From the UHGV virus genome UHGV-1482696: a stretch of DNA of 36,682 bases; one strand, given 5' to 3'. Under the pieces are notes generated by a model that saw only the letters and a list, made by a program, of their open reading frames with translations, was not told the DNA's origin and searched no databases. The DNA comes from a virus. Below, piece after piece: positions 10,344 through 36,682 of the stretch; the first letter of the stretch is position 1, and the number at the start of each line of letters is the position of its first letter. The position numbers and the translations under genes were made by a program.

Positions 10344-10411
10344 TGTCACCATAATCCCGCACCTGCCATCTGATTTTTTAGACTGCCATCAGAGCATTTT
10401 TTCAGGGAAGC

Positions 10412-29759: not shown

Positions 29760-30842
29760 ATGGCTTATTCACCACCGACATTATCATCGCTGATTGCCCG
29801 TACAGAACAGAATATTGAACAGCGCCTGCCGGGTAGCTGGCCTCAGGCCCGTGAAAAAACGCTGAGTGCCATTGCTTATGCTCAGGCAGGCCTTGCTGCC
29901 GGTTGTCACGAGCATATTTCATGGGTTGGACGGCAGATTATCCCGTCGACAGCAGATGAAGATGAGTTGCTGGAGCACTGCCGGTTCTGGGGCGTGCGCC
30001 GCAAACAGGCGACAGCCGCCAGCGGCCCGCTGACTGTCACCACATCGGCAGCGACCACCATTCCTGCCGGTACACGCTGGCAGCGTGCTGATGGTGTGGT
30101 TTACAGCCTGGCTGATGCCATTGTGATTGACCGTGCAGGAACGACGGAAATTACCGTTACCGCACTGGCTGCCGGTGAAGCAGGAAATACCGGTGAGAAT
30201 ACCCTTTTAACGTTGATCACCCCGGTTGCCTGTGTTGTTTCCGATGCCATCACTGTAAAAGGGTTTTCCGGTGGGGCTGATATTGAGAGTGCAGCGGAGC
30301 TGCTGTCACGGCTGGAATATCGTGTCCAGTATCCTCCGTTCGGCGGTAATCAGTTTGATTACGTCCGCTGGGCACGTGAAGTCAGCGGCGTTACCCGTGC
30401 CTGGTGTTTTCCGACATGGAAAGGCGGTGGCACAGTCGGGGTGACGTTTGTTATGGATAACCGGAGCAATATTTTTCCACAACCGGCAGACGTGGAACGC
30501 GTGGCAGATTATATCGCCGGTCATACTGACCCGATCACCGGTCTGATTGTCGGACAGCCTGACGGTGTAAATGTCACTGTATTTGCGCCAAAGGCAAAGC
30601 CGGTAAATCCACGGATTTATATATCACCGAAGACAGCCGAACTGAAACAGGCTATTACCCACGCCATTAATACCATGTTTTTTAATGAGGTGACGCCGGG
30701 CGGCGCACTTGCCCCCTCCCGTATTATCCGTGCGGTGGCAGGTGTTACCGGTCTGGATGATTTTGAAGTGCGTTTCCCGACAGAGATCCAGCGTTCGGAG
30801 AATACGGAACTGTTAACACCGGGGACAATTGAATGGCTGTAA
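29760..30842 (+). CDS. W: Baseplate wedge protein W (J-like)
   Basis: 360 aa, Mu gp47-like. Confidence 0.85.
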   Translation: MAYSPPTLSSLIARTEQNIEQRLPGSWPQAREKTLSAIAYAQAGLAAGCHEHISWVGRQIIPSTADEDELLEHCRFWGVRRKQATAASGPLTVTTSAATTIPAGTRWQRADGVVYSLADAIVIDRAGTTEITVTALAAGEAGNTGENTLLTLITPVACVVSDAITVKGFSGGADIESAAELLSRLEYRVQYPPFGGNQFDYVRWAREVSGVTRAWCFPTWKGGGTVGVTFVMDNRSNIFPQPADVERVADYIAGHTDPITGLIVGQPDGVNVTVFAPKAKPVNPRIYISPKTAELKQAITHAINTMFFNEVTPGGALAPSRIIRAVAGVTGLDDFEVRFPTEIQRSENTELLTPGTIEWL

Positions 30843-31375
30843 CACCCTATCAGACGGCCTTTCTGCAATTACTGCCGTCAGGGCTTGCCTGGAATAAAAG
30901 CCCCGACAGCAAATTATCTGCGCTGGCGCAGGCCATCAGCGACGTGATTGCCACTGCGGCGGATGATGCGCGGCAAATGCTGCGGGAGCGTTTCCCGTCC
31001 ACATCCCGCTGGTATCTGGGGGAGTGGGAATCATTTCTGGGGTTGCCGGACTGTACCAGCGAAAACGGCACCCTGTCCGAACGCCAGCGGGCTGCCGCGA
31101 ATAAAATGCGTATGACCGGCAATCTGAGTCGGCGCTTTTATGAATGGCTGGCTGCGCAGTACGGTTTTACCGTCAGGCTGACGGATTCCACAGAAGGCCA
31201 GTGGGTTACGCAGGTCAATATTTACGGTATTAAAAATTATCGCAACGCAACGGTGCTGGATAATGTTCTGACGCCGTTACGTGTTTATGAATCGGGTGCG
31301 CTGGAATGTTTACTGGAGAAATATAAACCCGCGCATCAGATTTATAAATTTGTTTACCATGACGGAGATAACTAA
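30833..31375 (+). CDS. R: Baseplate / tail-fibre attachment protein R (Mu gp48-like)
   Basis: 180 aa; overlaps W stop. Confidence 0.8.
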   Translation: MAVTPYQTAFLQLLPSGLAWNKSPDSKLSALAQAISDVIATAADDARQMLRERFPSTSRWYLGEWESFLGLPDCTSENGTLSERQRAAANKMRMTGNLSRRFYEWLAAQYGFTVRLTDSTEGQWVTQVNIYGIKNYRNATVLDNVLTPLRVYESGALECLLEKYKPAHQIYKFVYHDGDN

Positions 31376-32883
31376 TGTTTTATATTGATAACGACAGCGG
31401 CGTAACCGTCATGCCGCCCGTATCCGCCCAGCGTAGTGCTATCGTTCGCTGGTTTTCAGAAGGTGACGGGAATAATGTTATCACATGGCCCGGCATGGAC
31501 TGGTTTAATATTGTGCAGGCGGAGTTATTAAACACGCTGGAAGAAGCCGGTATTCAACCGGATAAAACAAAATTAAACCAGCTTGCACTGTCCATTAAAG
31601 CCATTATGAGCAATAACGCGCTGCTGATAAAAAATAACCTCAGCGAAATTAAAACTGCCGGGGCATCAGCACAGCGTACAGCACGTGAAAATCTGGATAT
31701 CTATGATGCCAGCCTGAACAAAAAAGGACTCGTTCAGCTAACCAGTGCCACTGACAGCCCCAGTGAAACGCTGGCAGCCACCGCAAAAGCGGTGAAAATT
31801 GCGATGGATAATGCCAGTGCCCGTCTGGCAAAAGACCGGAACGGAGCAGATATTCCCAATAAGCCGCTGTTTATCCAAAACCTCGGTTTACAGGAAACGG
31901 TAAACAAGGCTGGTAACGCCGTCCAAAAGACAGGCGATATCTTGTCCGGTGGGCTTACTTTTGAAAACGACTCAATCCTTGCCTGGATTCGGAATACTGA
32001 CTGGGCAAAGATTGGTTTTAAAAATGATGCCGACAGCGATACTGATTCATACATGTGGTTTGAAACAGGCGACAACGGCAATGAATATTTCAAATGGAGA
32101 AGCCGCCAGAGCACCACAACAAAAGACCTGATGAATCTTAAATGGGATGCTTTGTATGTTCTTGTTAAAGCTCTTTTCAGCAGTGAAGTAAAAATATCGA
32201 CAGTCAATGCACTGAGGATATTTAATTCATCTTTTGGTGCTATTTTTCGCCGTTCTGAAGAATGTCTTCATATCATCCCTACCCGAGAAAATGAGGGGGA
32301 AAATGGCGATATAGGGCCACTACGCCCCTTTACGCTTAATCTCAGAACTGGTCGCATAACTATGGGGCATGGTCTGGATGTTACAGGAGATATATTTGCA
32401 AACCGTTTTTTAATTAACAGCAGTACAGGCATGTGGATTCATATGCGTGACCAGAACGTTATTATGGGACGTAATGCGGTATCCACTGATGGTGCTCAGG
32501 CTTTGCTCCGTCAGGACCATGCCGACCGCAAATTTATGATTGGCGGTCTGGGAAATAAGCAATTTGGCATCTACATGATTAATAATTCAAGGACAGCCAA
32601 TGGCACCGATGGTCAGGCGTACATGGATAATAACGGGAACTGGCTTTGCGGCTCGCAAGTTATTCCCGGCAACTATGGCAATTTTGACTCACGCTATGTG
32701 AGAGATGTCCGACTTGGCACACGTGTTGTTCAATTGATGGCGCGTGGAGGACGTTATGAAATAGCCGGACACGCACTTACTGGATTAAGAATTATTGGCG
32801 AAGTTGATGGCGATGATGAAGCTATTTTCAGGCCGATACAAAAATACATCAATGGCATATGGTATAACGTCGCACAGGTGTAA
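31375..32883 (+). CDS. S: Tail fibre protein S (constant part Sc fused to variable part Sv, G(+) orientation)
   Basis: 502 aa; reading frame passes through gixL at 31871-31904 (..ADIPNKPLFIQNLGLQETVNK..). Confidence 0.9.
   Translation: MFYIDNDSGVTVMPPVSAQRSAIVRWFSEGDGNNVITWPGMDWFNIVQAELLNTLEEAGIQPDKTKLNQLALSIKAIMSNNALLIKNNLSEIKTAGASAQRTARENLDIYDASLNKKGLVQLTSATDSPSETLAATAKAVKIAMDNASARLAKDRNGADIPNKPLFIQNLGLQETVNKAGNAVQKTGDILSGGLTFENDSILAWIRNTDWAKIGFKNDADSDTDSYMWFETGDNGNEYFKWRSRQSTTTKDLMNLKWDALYVLVKALFSSEVKISTVNALRIFNSSFGAIFRRSEECLHIIPTRENEGENGDIGPLRPFTLNLRTGRITMGHGLDVTGDIFANRFLINSSTGMWIHMRDQNVIMGRNAVSTDGAQALLRQDHADRKFMIGGLGNKQFGIYMINNSRTANGTDGQAYMDNNGNWLCGSQVIPGNYGNFDSRYVRDVRLGTRVVQLMARGGRYEIAGHALTGLRIIGEVDGDDEAIFRPIQKYINGIWYNVAQV
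31871..31904. repeat. gixL recombination site (left inverted repeat of G segment)
   Basis: TTATCCAAAACCTCGGTTTACAGGAAACGGTAAA; inverted copy at 34916-34949 with one mismatch. Confidence 0.9.
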
Positions 32884-32886
32884 ATC

Positions 32887-33414
32887 ATGCAGCACTTAAA
32901 AAATATCAGGTCAGGAAACCCAAAGACAAAAGAGCAATACCAATTGACAAAGAATTTTGACGTAATCTGGTTGTGGTCAGAAGACGAAAAAAACTGGTAC
33001 GAGGAATTAAAAAACTTTCAGCCAGACACAATAAAGATTGTTTACGATGCAAATAATATTATTGTCGCCATCACTAAAGATGCCTCCACGCTTAACCCTG
33101 AAGGTTTTAGCGTCGTTGAGGTCCCCGATATAACAGCCAACCGCCGCGCTGATGATTCAGGAAAGTGGATGTTTAAGGATGGAGCTGTAGTTAAACGGAT
33201 TTATACGGCAGACGAACAGCAACAACAGGCCGAATCACAAAAGGCCGCGTTACTTTCCGAAGCAGAAAGTGTTATTCAGCCACTGGAACGCGCTGTCAGG
33301 CTGAATATGGCAACAGACGAGGAACGCACACGACTGGAAGCATGGGAACGCTACAGTGTTCTGGTCAGCCGTGTGGATACGGCAAATCCTGAATGGCCAC
33401 AAAAGCCTGAATAA
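32887..33414 (+). CDS. U: Tail fibre assembly chaperone U
   Basis: 175 aa; paralogous to the minus-strand U' ORF (shared [42 protein letters not shown]). Confidence 0.9.
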
Positions 33415-33442
33415 AAATTAAGGCCCGATAGCGGGCCTTGTT

Positions 33443-33976
33443 TCATTCTGGTTGTTCTGGAAACGTTACTGGCAGGCTGGAGGTGTCTGTGGATTCGACC
33501 TTCTGCGCATAGAGCATCCACTCGGTTAATTTTTGTTTATTCTCGTCGGAAATGATGCCCAGCCGTAGCTGTGAGTCCCATAGCTGGGTTTTATCCCTGA
33601 CAAGTTGCAACAGGCTTTGCTTTTCATTCTCTGCCTGCTGCCTCTGTTCCTCCTCGGTATAAGTTCGCTTTATCACTACGCCATCTTTGAACATCCATTT
33701 ACCCGAAATATCAGCCCGGCGATTTGCTGTAATATCAGGTAATTCAACGACGCTTGCGCCTTCCGGATTAATTGCTGAAACATCCTTTTCAATACAAATA
33801 ATAACGCCGTTATGGTCATAGACCATTTTCAAAGTGTCTGGCTGGAAATTCTTTTGTTCCTCATACCAGTTTTTTCCATCATCTGAATAAAGCCATTTGA
33901 TGTTAAATTGCTTTGTTAGCTGGTATTGCTCTTTTGTTTTAGGGTTGCCAGCAGTAATGTTTTTTAAGTGCATCAT
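33443..33976 (-). CDS. U': Alternative tail fibre assembly chaperone U'
   Basis: 177 aa on opposite strand inside G segment; paralogue of U. Confidence 0.88.
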   Translation of the reverse strand: MMHLKNITAGNPKTKEQYQLTKQFNIKWLYSDDGKNWYEEQKNFQPDTLKMVYDHNGVIICIEKDVSAINPEGASVVELPDITANRRADISGKWMFKDGVVIKRTYTEEEQRQQAENEKQSLLQLVRDKTQLWDSQLRLGIISDENKQKLTEWMLYAQKVESTDTSSLPVTFPEQPE

Positions 33977-33978
33977 CG

Positions 33979-34915
33979 TTAAATACTCCCCGCGTTATAC
34001 CACGTCCCATTAATGCAATACTGAATTGGCCTTGCCTGTGTTGTATCAATTAATTCATCACGGTTTCCGTTAACTGAACCCGTAACGACATAACCTGACC
34101 TGTCAGACCAGCCGGGACCATTCCATGTCTGAACAGATGACAGACCGCCAAGGCGAATACCTGTAATAAACCTTGAGTTACATTCTGCCCGCGTATATGC
34201 ACCAACATCTCCCGCAGAGGGTTTGCGGGTTGTGGTGTAAAACTCTGACCAGTCAGCTTCAAAGCCATAACCATCACGCGCTGAACGATAAAAGATTCCG
34301 CCATTTCTGTAATTCACGCGGAACTGTACAGCAGGGCAACTCCCCGCATTCATATTAAAGTGGAGGATTAATGTCGATGCACCACTGATATCTGCATCAT
34401 AAACGCCGCTATTCCAGTTCCAGCCAACAGCTTTATCATTTGCAACCCTGCTTCCTGTTTGCCCTAAAGCAAATGCAGGCTGCTGATTTTTCGTGTTGTA
34501 GTCTCGTCGCCAGCCAGGAGAATAACCATCACCATGATTAATATAAGTGAATTGAGCGTTAGTAGTTCCGCCACCGCTGGACGTGCTCGGCGTGGTAACG
34601 CGTATGGTCATTGCGCCGCGGGTTCCCATAACCTCAATCACGGCTCCGGCAAGGCAGATATTTCCACAACCGGTATCCGTAATAACCCTGTTTCTGGCAT
34701 AGGACCATGACCCTTTACACATCCAGTATGGATGTCGGAAAGCTCCGTTATTCTCCAGCCACGAGATAAATGCAACTGTCGACCATTCACCTTGTGAACC
34801 ATCGATATCAGTCTGACCGCTAAATGCACGACAGGCCCCTGTGTTTTGTATGAATTTATCTTTATTCGGAATATCTGCACCGTTCTGGTTTTTCTGCAAT
34901 GCGCCAGAAGCCTGA
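33979..34915 (-). CDS. S': Alternative tail-fibre variable segment S'v (no own start; expressed only after G inversion as Sc-S'v fusion)
   Basis: Minus-strand frame is open from gixR to the stop at 33979 and is in frame with Sc across the gix site (..QETVNQASGALQKNQNGADIPNK..); track start 34899 is TTG, no ATG or RBS. Confidence 0.8.
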
Positions 34916-34949
34916 TTTACCGTTTCCTGTAAACCGAGGTTTTAGATAA
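34916..34949. repeat. gixR recombination site (right inverted repeat of G segment)
   Basis: TTTACCGTTTCCTGTAAACCGAGGTTTTAGATAA = reverse complement of gixL with a single G/A difference. Confidence 0.9.
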
Positions 34950-35003
34950 TGGCCGTTTCCGGCCTGCATGGCATGATTTGCGCTTTTGGACGGGAGATTC
35001 AGC

Positions 35004-35597
35004 GTGCTGATTGGCTATGTAAGGGTATCAACAAATGACCAGAATACAGACCTGCAACGAAACGCTCTTGTTTGTGCAGGATGTGAACAAATATTTGAAG
35101 ATAAATTAAGCGGGACAAAGACAGACCGACCGGGATTAAAACGCGCTTTAAAGCGCCTTCAAAAAGGTGACACGCTGGTTGTCTGGAAACTGGATCGCCT
35201 CGGGCGAAGCATGAAACATTTGATTTCTCTCGTAGGGGAATTACGAGAGCGAGGGATTAATTTTCGCAGTCTTACTGACAGTATTGATACGTCATCTCCA
35301 ATGGGGCGTTTTTTCTTCCACGTTATGGGTGCCCTGGCTGAAATGGAACGAGAACTAATCATCGAGCGAACGATGGCTGGACTTGCTGCCGCCAGAAATA
35401 AAGGCCGTATCGGTGGGCGACCACCTAAACTAACCAAAGCGGAATGGGAGCAGGCCGGGCGTTTATTAGCACAAGGAATCCCCCGCAAGCAGGTCGCATT
35501 GATCTACGATGTGGCCCTGTCAACGCTGTATAAAAAACACCCCGCCAAACGAACGCATATAGAAAACGACGATCGAATCAATCAAATCGATCGGTAA
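35004..35597 (+). CDS. gin: Gin serine recombinase (G-segment DNA invertase)
   Basis: LIGYVRVSTNDQNTDLQRNAL... resolvase/invertase catalytic domain with active-site Ser and C-terminal HTH; likely GTG start 35004 with GGGAG 7 nt upstream (track start 34986 is TTG). Confidence 0.93.
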   Translation: MLIGYVRVSTNDQNTDLQRNALVCAGCEQIFEDKLSGTKTDRPGLKRALKRLQKGDTLVVWKLDRLGRSMKHLISLVGELRERGINFRSLTDSIDTSSPMGRFFFHVMGALAEMERELIIERTMAGLAAARNKGRIGGRPPKLTKAEWEQAGRLLAQGIPRKQVALIYDVALSTLYKKHPAKRTHIENDDRINQIDR

Positions 35598-35679
35598 TAC
35601 AGATCGATTATGCCCCAATAACCACACTCAACCCACGATGTTTTTTAAGATAGTGGCGAATTGATGCAAAGGAGGTGAA
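35571..35679 (+). promoter_or_regulatory. mom operon control region: three Dam GATC sites, T6-containing promoter Pmom
   Basis: GATC at 35571-35574, 35589-35592 and 35602-35605 (overlapping the gin 3-prime end); T6 run at 35641-35646 upstream of the com RBS GGAGG. Confidence 0.75.
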
Positions 35680-35868
35680 ATGAAATCAATTCGCTGTAAA
35701 AACTGCAACAAACTGTTATTTAAGGCGGATTCCTTTGATCACATTGAAATCAGGTGTCCGCGTTGCAAACGTCACATCATAATGCTGAATGCCTGCGAGC
35801 ATCCCACGGAGAAACATTGTGGGAAAAGAGAAAAAATCACGCATTCTGACGAAACCGTGCGTTATTGA
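35680..35868 (+). CDS. com: Com zinc-finger translational activator of mom
   Basis: 62 aa [34 protein letters not shown]: C-x2-C ... C-x2-C zinc ribbon; overlaps mom. Confidence 0.92.
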
Positions 35869-36514
35869 GTATGAAGGCCAGATTGTTGGCTATGGTTCAA
35901 AGGAGCTGCGCGTTGAAACCATATCCTGCTGGCTGGCCCGCACAATTATTCAGACAAAGCACTATTCCCGCCGTTTTGTGAATAACTCTTACCTCCACCT
36001 GGGAGTATTCAGCGGACGCGATCTGGTTGGCGTTCTCCAGTGGGGATATGCCCTTAACCCCAACTCAGGTCGTCGTGTCGTGCTTGAAACGGATAACCGG
36101 GGCTATATGGAGTTGAACCGCATGTGGCTACACGATGACATGCCCCGCAACTCTGAATCACGGGCCATCAGTTATGCACTGAAAACCATCAGGTTACTGT
36201 ATCCGTCAGTGGAGTGGGTTCAGTCCTTTGCAGACGAACGCTGCGGACGCGCAGGCGTTGTGTATCAGGCGTCGAATTTTGATTTTATTGGCAGTCATGA
36301 AAGTACATTCTACGAGCTGGATGGTGAGTGGTATCACGAGATAACGATGAACGCGATTAAGCGAGGTGGACAACGAGGCGTGTATTTACGGGCTAATAAA
36401 GAGCGTGCCGTGGTGCACAAATTTAATCAGTATCGCTACATCAGATTCCTGAACAAGCGAGCAAGGAAGCGGCTAAATACCAAACTATTCAAGGTTCAGC
36501 CATACCCTAAGTGA
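35819..36514 (+). CDS. mom: Mom DNA modification enzyme (adenine N6 carbamoylmethyl-type modification, anti-restriction)
   Basis: ORF open 35789..36514; start uncertain between ATG 35789 and in-frame GTG 35819; product with acyltransferase-like core, last gene before attR as in Mu. Confidence 0.85.
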
Positions 36515-36534
36515 TCCCCATGTAATGAATAAAA

Positions 36535-36560
36535 AGCAGTAATTAATACTGCTGTTTCAT
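36535..36560 (+). terminator. Hairpin terminator after mom
   Basis: AGCAGTA-ATTAA-TACTGCT stem followed by GTTTCATTT. Confidence 0.55.
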
Positions 36561-36629
36561 TTGAAGCGCGAAAGCTAAAGTTTTCGCATTTATCGTGAAA
36601 CGCTTTCGCGTTTTTCGTGCGCCGCTTCA
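36555..36629 (+). promoter_or_regulatory. attR: attR right transposon end with MuA binding sites R1-R3
   Basis: Three tandem CGAAA-containing MuA-type sites (GAAGCGCGAAAGC.., TTTTCGCATTTATCGTGAAACGC, TTTCGCGTTTTTCGTGCGCCGCTTCA) ending in terminal CA at 36629. Confidence 0.8.
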
Positions 36630-36634
36630 GCTGC
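36630..36634. repeat. Right copy of 5-bp target-site duplication GCTGC
   Basis: Identical to 67-71; immediately follows terminal CA of the phage right end. Confidence 0.85.
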
Positions 36635-36682
36635 TGATGCTCGCCATATAGAAATATTTCGAGAAAATGAGGATTAACAGAA

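Follow-up and report, generated by a model that had tools for sequence, protein, structure and literature searches.

A probable Mu-type control region of the com-mom operon at the end of gin in an Escherichia coli prophage

Dam, OxyR, C and Com together control the toxic phage gene mom, and this has been a textbook example of layered control since the 1980s. In Mu, a hairpin at the mom start acts as a block of translation that is relieved by Com. The promoter of the operon, Pmom, is governed by Dam and OxyR (PMC3378877) and, according to earlier works as these are cited in PMC3378877, binding of OxyR in Mu is lost on full methylation. An OxyR half-site takes the form ATAGnTnnnAnCTAT (PMC2909390). 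Pmom has ACCACA as its -35 element followed by a spacer of 19 bp, and the dyad to which C binds is centred at -43.5, the protein protecting about -30 to -55 (PMC2582627). The poor -35 element, the sub-optimal spacing and a stretch of T residues render Pmom dependent on C, and RNA polymerase that is left without C occupies a divergent promoter, momP2 (PMC3378877). A stretch of six Ts is common to Plys and Pmom, and the tin7 mutation in this stretch (T to G, giving tttGtt) allows RNA polymerase to be recruited without C (PMC4461284). Both beta-clamp-binding motifs of C are required for transcription from Pmom (2026 PNAS paper), and Com is required for the translation of mom (PMC3378877).

Two other switches of this kind served as a reference for our analysis. 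The operator of E. coli agn43 (flu) reads ATAGaataaaaCGATC...atcGATCgtttatatcGATCgat, which can be written as ATAG-N7-CGATC ... GATCG-N7-CGATC. At agn43 OxyR is a repressor that is excluded by methylation, as it is at mom in Mu; the agn43 operator, however, is located downstream of the promoter, and it gives rise to heritable ON/OFF phase variation. The cryptic prophage CP4-44 contains this operator (locus L251; E. coli K-12 positions 2071300-2071360), so that the two OxyR operators known to have three GATCs, those of mom and agn43, are both prophage-borne. In the gtr system of Salmonella and P22, pairs of GATC sites that are 13 bp apart fall within single OxyR half-sites, the pairs of P22 being located at -110/-97 and -46/-33 (PMC2909390). 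The spacing of the gtr half-sites, about 32 bp, is that of reduced OxyR. With three half-sites, four GATCs and an occupancy that alternates between activating and repressing, gtr differs from mom, which has two half-sites and three GATCs and for which repression is the only known effect.

The DNA analyzed here is a stretch of 36,682 nucleotides, referred to below as the window. It consists of a Mu-like prophage (72-36629) between short flanking stretches of host DNA. The left end of Mu, TGTATTGATTCAC..., begins at position 72 and the Mu right end, ...CGCCGCTTCA, finishes at position 36629, while a direct repeat of 5 bp, GCTGC, is present on both sides of the prophage, at the junctions (67-72 and 36629-36634). 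When the flanks were joined with one copy of the repeat, the reconstructed empty site of 119 nt matched E. coli fsr at 100% and was present in 5,420 of 5,426 complete genomes. The prophage is inserted in E. coli fsr, the gene for a fosmidomycin MFS transporter, with GCTGC as its 5-bp target duplication. Since the identity of the right-hand 1.7 kb is 97.6% to phage Mu and 98.0% to SfMu, the element is a relative of Mu and not Mu itself. Strain elppa5 was considered as the source of the window and rejected: its control region is identical, but its prophage resides in fucI and not in fsr. Insertion of like prophages in these two genes is as expected for the random transposition of Mu. The G segment (32887-34899) contains a U-like ORF on the plus strand (32887-33414) and two ORFs on the minus strand, one U'-like (33443-33976) and one S'-like (33979-34899). 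This orientation is that of the Mu reference record, G(+).

Our analysis centred on the region between the end of gin and the start of com. Based on the comparisons described below, the stretch from 35559 to 35680 is very probably the control region of the com-mom operon of this prophage, and it would work as in Mu. The features on which this conclusion depends are listed in Table 1.

Table 1. Features of the gin-com-mom region and of the C gene in the window. Positions are those of the window; relative positions refer to the predicted operon start.
Feature	Position	Strand	Remarks and evidence
gin, serine DNA invertase, 197 aa	35004..35597	+	GTG start, TAA stop at 35595-97; ORF, Pfam, identity to Mu
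Gin C-terminal tail, codons 182-197	35547..35594	+	past the end of HTH_7; only coding sequence that overlaps the operator
Putative OxyR half-site 1, ATAGaaaacgaCGAT	35559..35573		7/10 to ATAGnTnnnAnCTAT; right arm overlaps GATC1
GATC1 (Dam site)	35571..35574		-87 to -84; sequence, alignments
GATC2 (Dam site)	35589..35592		-69 to -66; sequence, alignments
Putative OxyR half-site 2, ATCGgtaatacAGAT	35590..35604		7/10; arms overlap GATC2 and GATC3
GATC3 (Dam site)	35602..35605		-56 to -53, adjoins the C dyad; sequence, alignments
C-activator dyad, TTATgccccaATAA	35608..35621		centre 35614.5; TTAT-N6-ATAA
Pmom proposed -35, ACCACA	35621..35626	+	named in PMC2582627
T6 run	35641..35646	+	at the 3' side of the 19-bp spacer; the -10 begins with its last T
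Pmom -10, TAAGAT	35646..35651	+	19 bp from ACCACA; invariant in 8 phages
Predicted mom operon start (+1)	35658	+	dyad centre 35614.5 + 43.5; 7 nt past the -10
com, zinc-ribbon translational activator of mom, 62 aa	35680..35868	+	Pfam Zn_ribbon_Com; Shine-Dalgarno AGGAGG at 35670-75
Predicted hairpin, CCCAC...GUGGG	35802..35824	+	encloses the mom GUG (35819-21); MFE and centroid structures
mom, DNA adenine modification enzyme, 231 aa from GUG	35819..36514	+	Pfam Mom family, 253 bits
C, late-gene activator required by Pmom, 140 aa	9898..10320	+	Pfam Mor family, 116 bits

The genes that take part in the control of mom are all present. Gin contains the Pfam Resolvase domain (PF00239, residues 3-135, 171 bits) and the HTH_7 domain (PF02796, residues 138-181, 63 bits), the N-terminal and C-terminal parts of the domain set of the Gin/Hin family of serine DNA invertases, and it is 98% identical to Gin of Mu. 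The same coding sequence of 594 nt is annotated in RefSeq for strain elppa5. Com is 100% identical to its counterpart in Mu, and Mom is 99.1% identical, with a GUG start equivalent to that in the Mu record; the com and mom ORFs overlap. The fold of a 71-nt segment around the mom start has a z-score of -0.55, which is not significant, so that the predicted hairpin is consistent with the Com mechanism and goes no further than that. C retains both beta-clamp-binding motifs, with L5 in MQHDLF and L133 in QPDLF. Plys follows the C gene at 10349-10384; it has one mismatch to the published oligonucleotide and a T6 run of its own. C, com and mom are all intact in this element. In the RefSeq record with the identical control region, mom is labelled 'hypothetical protein' and begins at the ATG at 35789 (241 aa, 35789-36514), so that the mom start differs between this record and that of Mu, where it is the GUG equivalent to 35819. 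A scan of 35400-36682 against Rfam returned only a sub-threshold chance match to CcsR1 (17 bits versus a gathering score of 65).

The mom control region of Mu (GenBank AF083977, about 35640-35770) has the same elements as the window in the same order. Common to both are the GATC sites at 18 and 13 bp, the TTAT-N6-ATAA dyad, ACCACA, the 19-bp spacer with its T6 run, TAAGAT, the Shine-Dalgarno sequence and ATG of com, and the mom GUG in a hairpin. From the end of gin to com, the two sequences differ at three bases only (35583, 35636 and 35679), none of which lies in a recognised element, and just the first two of these fall between half-site 1 and the -10. At 35583, in the spacer between the half-sites, the window has a C and Mu has a T. 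The TAA of Mu is a CAA here, and Gin is therefore 197 aa long and not 193 aa as in Mu. The gin stop of Mu is located 12 nt earlier, between GATC1 and GATC2, which leaves one GATC coding, whereas the stop in the window lies between GATC2 and GATC3 and two GATCs are coding. At 35636, in the promoter spacer, a C replaces the T of Mu, and at 35679, just before the ATG of com, an A replaces the G.

To judge the conservation of these elements, we aligned eight Mu-like phages, including Mu, SfMu, D108, PhiR68_1, Mu_3F6 and two Yersinia Mu-like phages. No differences occur among the eight in the three GATCs, the T6 run, the TTAT and ATAA arms, ACCACA or TAAGAT, but with a mean column identity of about 98% this invariance is weakly informative, and more diverged Mom loci were added for that reason (see below). 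Among 39 collinear loci with 17 distinct sequences, none of the 12 GATC columns varies, compared to 30 of the 140 columns overall (P about 0.05 within the Mu-type lineage); the T6 run, both hexamers and the arms of the dyad likewise do not vary in the 39 loci. The 17 distinct Mu-type sequences show no variation at 35559-35578 either. The preliminary description of this DNA had stated that the three sites and the T6 run are conserved, and it had proposed a comparison with Mu; they do occur at the same positions in Mu, and the GATC sites have not been lost. It had also concluded that the switch is intact, which it apparently is, judged from the near-identity to Mu and from the intact C, com and mom.

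The differences from Mu could nevertheless mean that the switch is present in an altered form, the change from T to C at 35636 or from G to A at 35679 modifying the dependence on C or the translation of com. Both differences are real, and the A at 35679 is rare, being found in a few loci and in two E. coli genomes. However, the C at 35636 also occurs in SfMu, which forms plaques, and in several others; no column of the region is more polymorphic than this one, which falls outside the dyad, the T6 run and both hexamers. Position 35679, in turn, is located between the Shine-Dalgarno sequence and the ATG, in a stretch that usually tolerates any base. We therefore consider an altered switch very unlikely, and we retain the reading that the region works as in Mu.

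The promoter region has the make-up of a Mu-type Pmom. It includes a dyad at -43.5, a poor -35 element, a 19-bp spacer with T6 and a -10 element, with three GATCs directly upstream of the C site, com and mom downstream, and a C gene in the same element. The arms of the dyad are invariant among relatives and its central spacer is variable, and other lineages, too, have an ATAAnCCC half-site after the GATC cluster. A generic sigma-70 promoter scan of 35500-35900 gave no promoter, as expected for an activator-dependent promoter, and terminator prediction over the same interval gave none between gin and com. The T6 run is unremarkable by itself, there being 14 runs of at least six Ts on this strand of the window. 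Its proposed role in making the promoter dependent on C probably applies here as well, in line with PMC3378877 and with the behaviour of tin7 (PMC4461284). The positions previously given for the T6 run (35641-35646) and the ribosome-binding site of com were exact (AGGAGG at 35670-75, com ATG at 35680), as were those of the GATC sites (35571, 35589 and 35602) and of the gin stop (35595-35597).

Upstream of the promoter, the GATC sites coincide with two sequences that resemble OxyR half-sites. In the window, half-site 1 is ATAGAAAACGACGAT and half-site 2 is ATCGGTAATACAGAT, each agreeing with the consensus at 7 of 10 positions, and the second starts 31 bp after the start of the first. GATCs are found in three of the four half-site arms: site 1 contains GATC1 in its right arm, and site 2 contains one GATC in each arm, GATC2 and GATC3. 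The pair is the sole composite match in the window, where about 0.3 (0.32) would be expected by chance; the register of the half-sites was picked after the data had been seen, and this motif score is therefore supportive and not decisive. When representatives of 16 lineages were anchored on GATC2, their consensus read At.g-N7-CgAT at -30 to -16 and ATCG-N7-cGAT at +1 to +15. The geometry is close to that of agn43, with GATC gaps of 18 and 13 bp versus 19 and 13 bp and an offset between half-sites of 31 bp versus 32 bp. Half-site 2, with its two GATCs, also resembles the single half-sites of gtr. From these features we infer two OxyR-type half-sites and membership in the Dam/OxyR operator type to which mom, agn43 and gtr belong. 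The preliminary description had proposed that methylation of the GATC sites controls the binding of a repressor. The near-identity to Mu and the literature support this proposal, and the repressor would be OxyR.

Since the operator extends into gin, we examined whether the switch belongs to gin or to com-mom. GATC1 and GATC2 are read in frame as GAT-C in the Asp-Arg codons 190-191 and 196-197 of gin, and GATC3 begins 5 nt past the gin stop. Overall, the last 12 to 13 codons of gin (186-197) overlap half-site 1, GATC1 and GATC2. The serine invertases Gin, Hin, Cin and Pin have the Resolvase and HTH_7 domains in common, and Gin of the window shows about 80% identity to many phage invertases, but these align to it only as far as residues 181-185, and only in the Mu-type lineage does an extra C-terminal tail extend into the mom operator. 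The tail varies within this lineage. Among 43 Mu-type loci, Gin is 197 aa long in 19, at most 193 aa long in 12 (ending with TAA or TGA) and 205 aa long in 3, while gin is absent or deleted in 8. The 205-aa form, found in Mu_3F6-type elements, reads through all three GATCs into the C dyad. With the drift of the stop codon, the number of GATCs inside the gin ORF ranges from 0 to 3 among relatives. In four identical loci (L028 and three others) gin is internally deleted, approximately codon 55 being joined directly to sequence immediately ahead of the operator; operator, promoter, com and mom are all kept in these loci.

For a wider view we collected about 160 further Mom-encoding loci, with 52-100% protein identity, and grouped their upstream regions into 39 lineages. 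These lineages are related by descent, so that P values calculated over lineages overstate their independence and the counts given here reflect conservation of a homologous element. Where Mom identity is at least 72%, 16 of 20 lineages show two or more GATCs within 150 nt upstream of com, and the density of GATC there is 14.7 per kb versus 1.7 per kb inside mom, about 9 times as high. In the four exceptions com was not detected and the anchor point was guessed, and they are thus uninformative. Below 72% identity, none of the 19 lineages has two GATCs upstream. The gaps between adjacent GATCs are 13 (n = 12), 18 (n = 10), 19 (n = 1), 31 (n = 3) and 32 (n = 1).

At many of these loci the operator occurs without gin (L009, L014, L027, L051, L111 and others). 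L009 has a tail-fibre-assembly-like gene upstream and no gin, and its three GATCs are intergenic, at exactly 18 and 13 bp. L014 and L027 contain the whole Mu-type operator and promoter; the homology to gin breaks off about 20 nt before GATC1, and no ORF was found across the operator in either. In L050 a Gin-like invertase ends 19 nt upstream of GATC1. Conversely, among 75 loci with an invertase of the gin family, the GATC triplet around the stop is present in all 10 that have com or mom downstream and in none of the 65 without mom; 24 of the latter have two sites about 85 bp apart. Since the operator is kept without gin and is absent from invertases without mom, it belongs to com-mom, and in these comparisons the switch is part of the com-mom module and not of gin.

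Two further groups of loci have operators of another composition. In 24 loci (L025, L033, L101-L103 and about 20 more) Mom is 94-98% identical, while the upstream region is wholly different, with no gin, no T6 and another promoter; two GATCs are located 18 bp apart and the third position is CATC. This group indicates a mosaic exchange of com-mom cassettes between phages and what would be a two-site variant of the operator. In a large lineage made up of L057-L082 and related loci (about 41, Mom about 79%) only a palindromic pair with a 13-bp spacing is found, tcGATCgtttttgtcGATCgatt, at -67 and -54 from com. This pair is predicted to form one OxyR half-site of seemingly perfect form, ATCG-N7-CGAT.

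The cluster might instead serve gin, through control by Dam of invertase expression or 3' end formation or through a constraint on the Asp-Arg tail of Gin; this idea can draw on the in-frame GAT-C codons and on the lack of a predicted terminator between gin and com. We rejected it on the 10/10 versus 0/65 comparison, however: where mom is missing, the invertase is in most cases 184 aa long, and the triplet is absent. In addition, mom cassettes without gin retain the cluster, the invertase of L050 stops before GATC1, the gin stop drifts (193, 197 or 205 aa; TAA or TGA) while the GATCs stay fixed, and the tail lies outside the HTH domain. A function in gin is thus extremely improbable. The overlap of gin with the operator is probably unconstrained at the protein level and specific to this lineage. 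The preliminary description had presented the 3' end of gin as doubling as the switch; the overlap is real, but the coupling was overstated, because the tail lies beyond the HTH domain and the switch travels with com-mom, with or without gin.

The clustering of the GATC sites was also considered by itself. The three GATCs within 31 bp are the tightest triple in the window, the runner-up spanning 88 bp. GATC is strongly depleted across the window, with 69 sites observed versus about 131 expected, and all 100 shuffles of the prophage gave more GATC than observed. A 4.4-kb stretch spanning the invertible G segment (30789-35192) has no GATC at all, and the right-end 1.7 kb are comparatively rich, with 8 sites. 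Under a uniform null model, an equally tight cluster would be found anywhere in the 36.7 kb with a P value of about 0.10. We therefore set aside clustering statistics as the sole argument: taken alone, the clustering is weak evidence, and it is position and conservation that carry the case. That the cluster is due to chance, has no regulatory role and is conserved only through the roughly 98% identity of the compared phages has next to no likelihood, for although the window-wide P value, the weak invariance of the eight phages and the P value within the Mu-type lineage would permit it, the 18/13 spacing (or 19/13, 13 or 18) recurs in lineages that have diverged beyond alignment, the density of GATC is about 9 times that inside mom, the geometry fits the experimentally studied operators of agn43 and gtr, and the published genetics of Mu support a regulatory role (PMC3378877).

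For the control region at 35559-35680, the anatomy of the sequence, its near-identity to Mu, the conserved geometry of the GATCs and their association with mom and not with gin are observations. On homology and on published work we base OxyR binding and its sensitivity to methylation, as well as the dependence on C and the placement of +1. Taken together, they suggest the following mode of control. As long as the GATCs are unmethylated, OxyR of the host would bind both half-sites and the operon would be repressed; methylation by Dam would exclude OxyR. Directly downstream, the phage activator C would bind the dyad at 35608-21 and offset the defects of the promoter, namely the ACCACA -35 and the 19-bp spacer that ends in T6, upstream of TAAGAT. 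Because a promoter with these defects depends on C, transcription would start near 35658 only late in lytic growth. Finally, Com would permit translation of mom from the GUG that is buried in the hairpin. The overlap with gin would be a by-product, its reading frame simply running on into the operator of the com-mom module.

In kind, nothing in this locus is new: a further prophage has its own copy of the textbook control region of mom. One may speculate further that Dam/OxyR operators form a portable module whose geometry is fixed (ATAG-N7-CGATC, about 14 bp, GATCG-N7-CGATC) and which is carried along with prophage cargo that is toxic or alters the surface, such as com-mom, gtr and, in CP4-44, agn43. 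On this reading, Mu-type lysogens may hold a heritable state, methylated or unmethylated, and Mom-modified phage would be made by only some of the induced cells, as a form of bet-hedging. We regard this reading as unlikely; if it were true, the drift of the gin stop would be the visible trace of splicing next to gin. On the present comparisons, the overlap with gin is an evolutionary happenstance and not a case of constrained dual coding. For annotation, the value of this locus is that an E. coli prophage whose mom is labelled 'hypothetical protein' in RefSeq contains a complete and apparently functional mom system. The conserved geometry of the GATC sites, which matches that of agn43, provides a simple signature with which cargo genes under Dam/OxyR control may be found.
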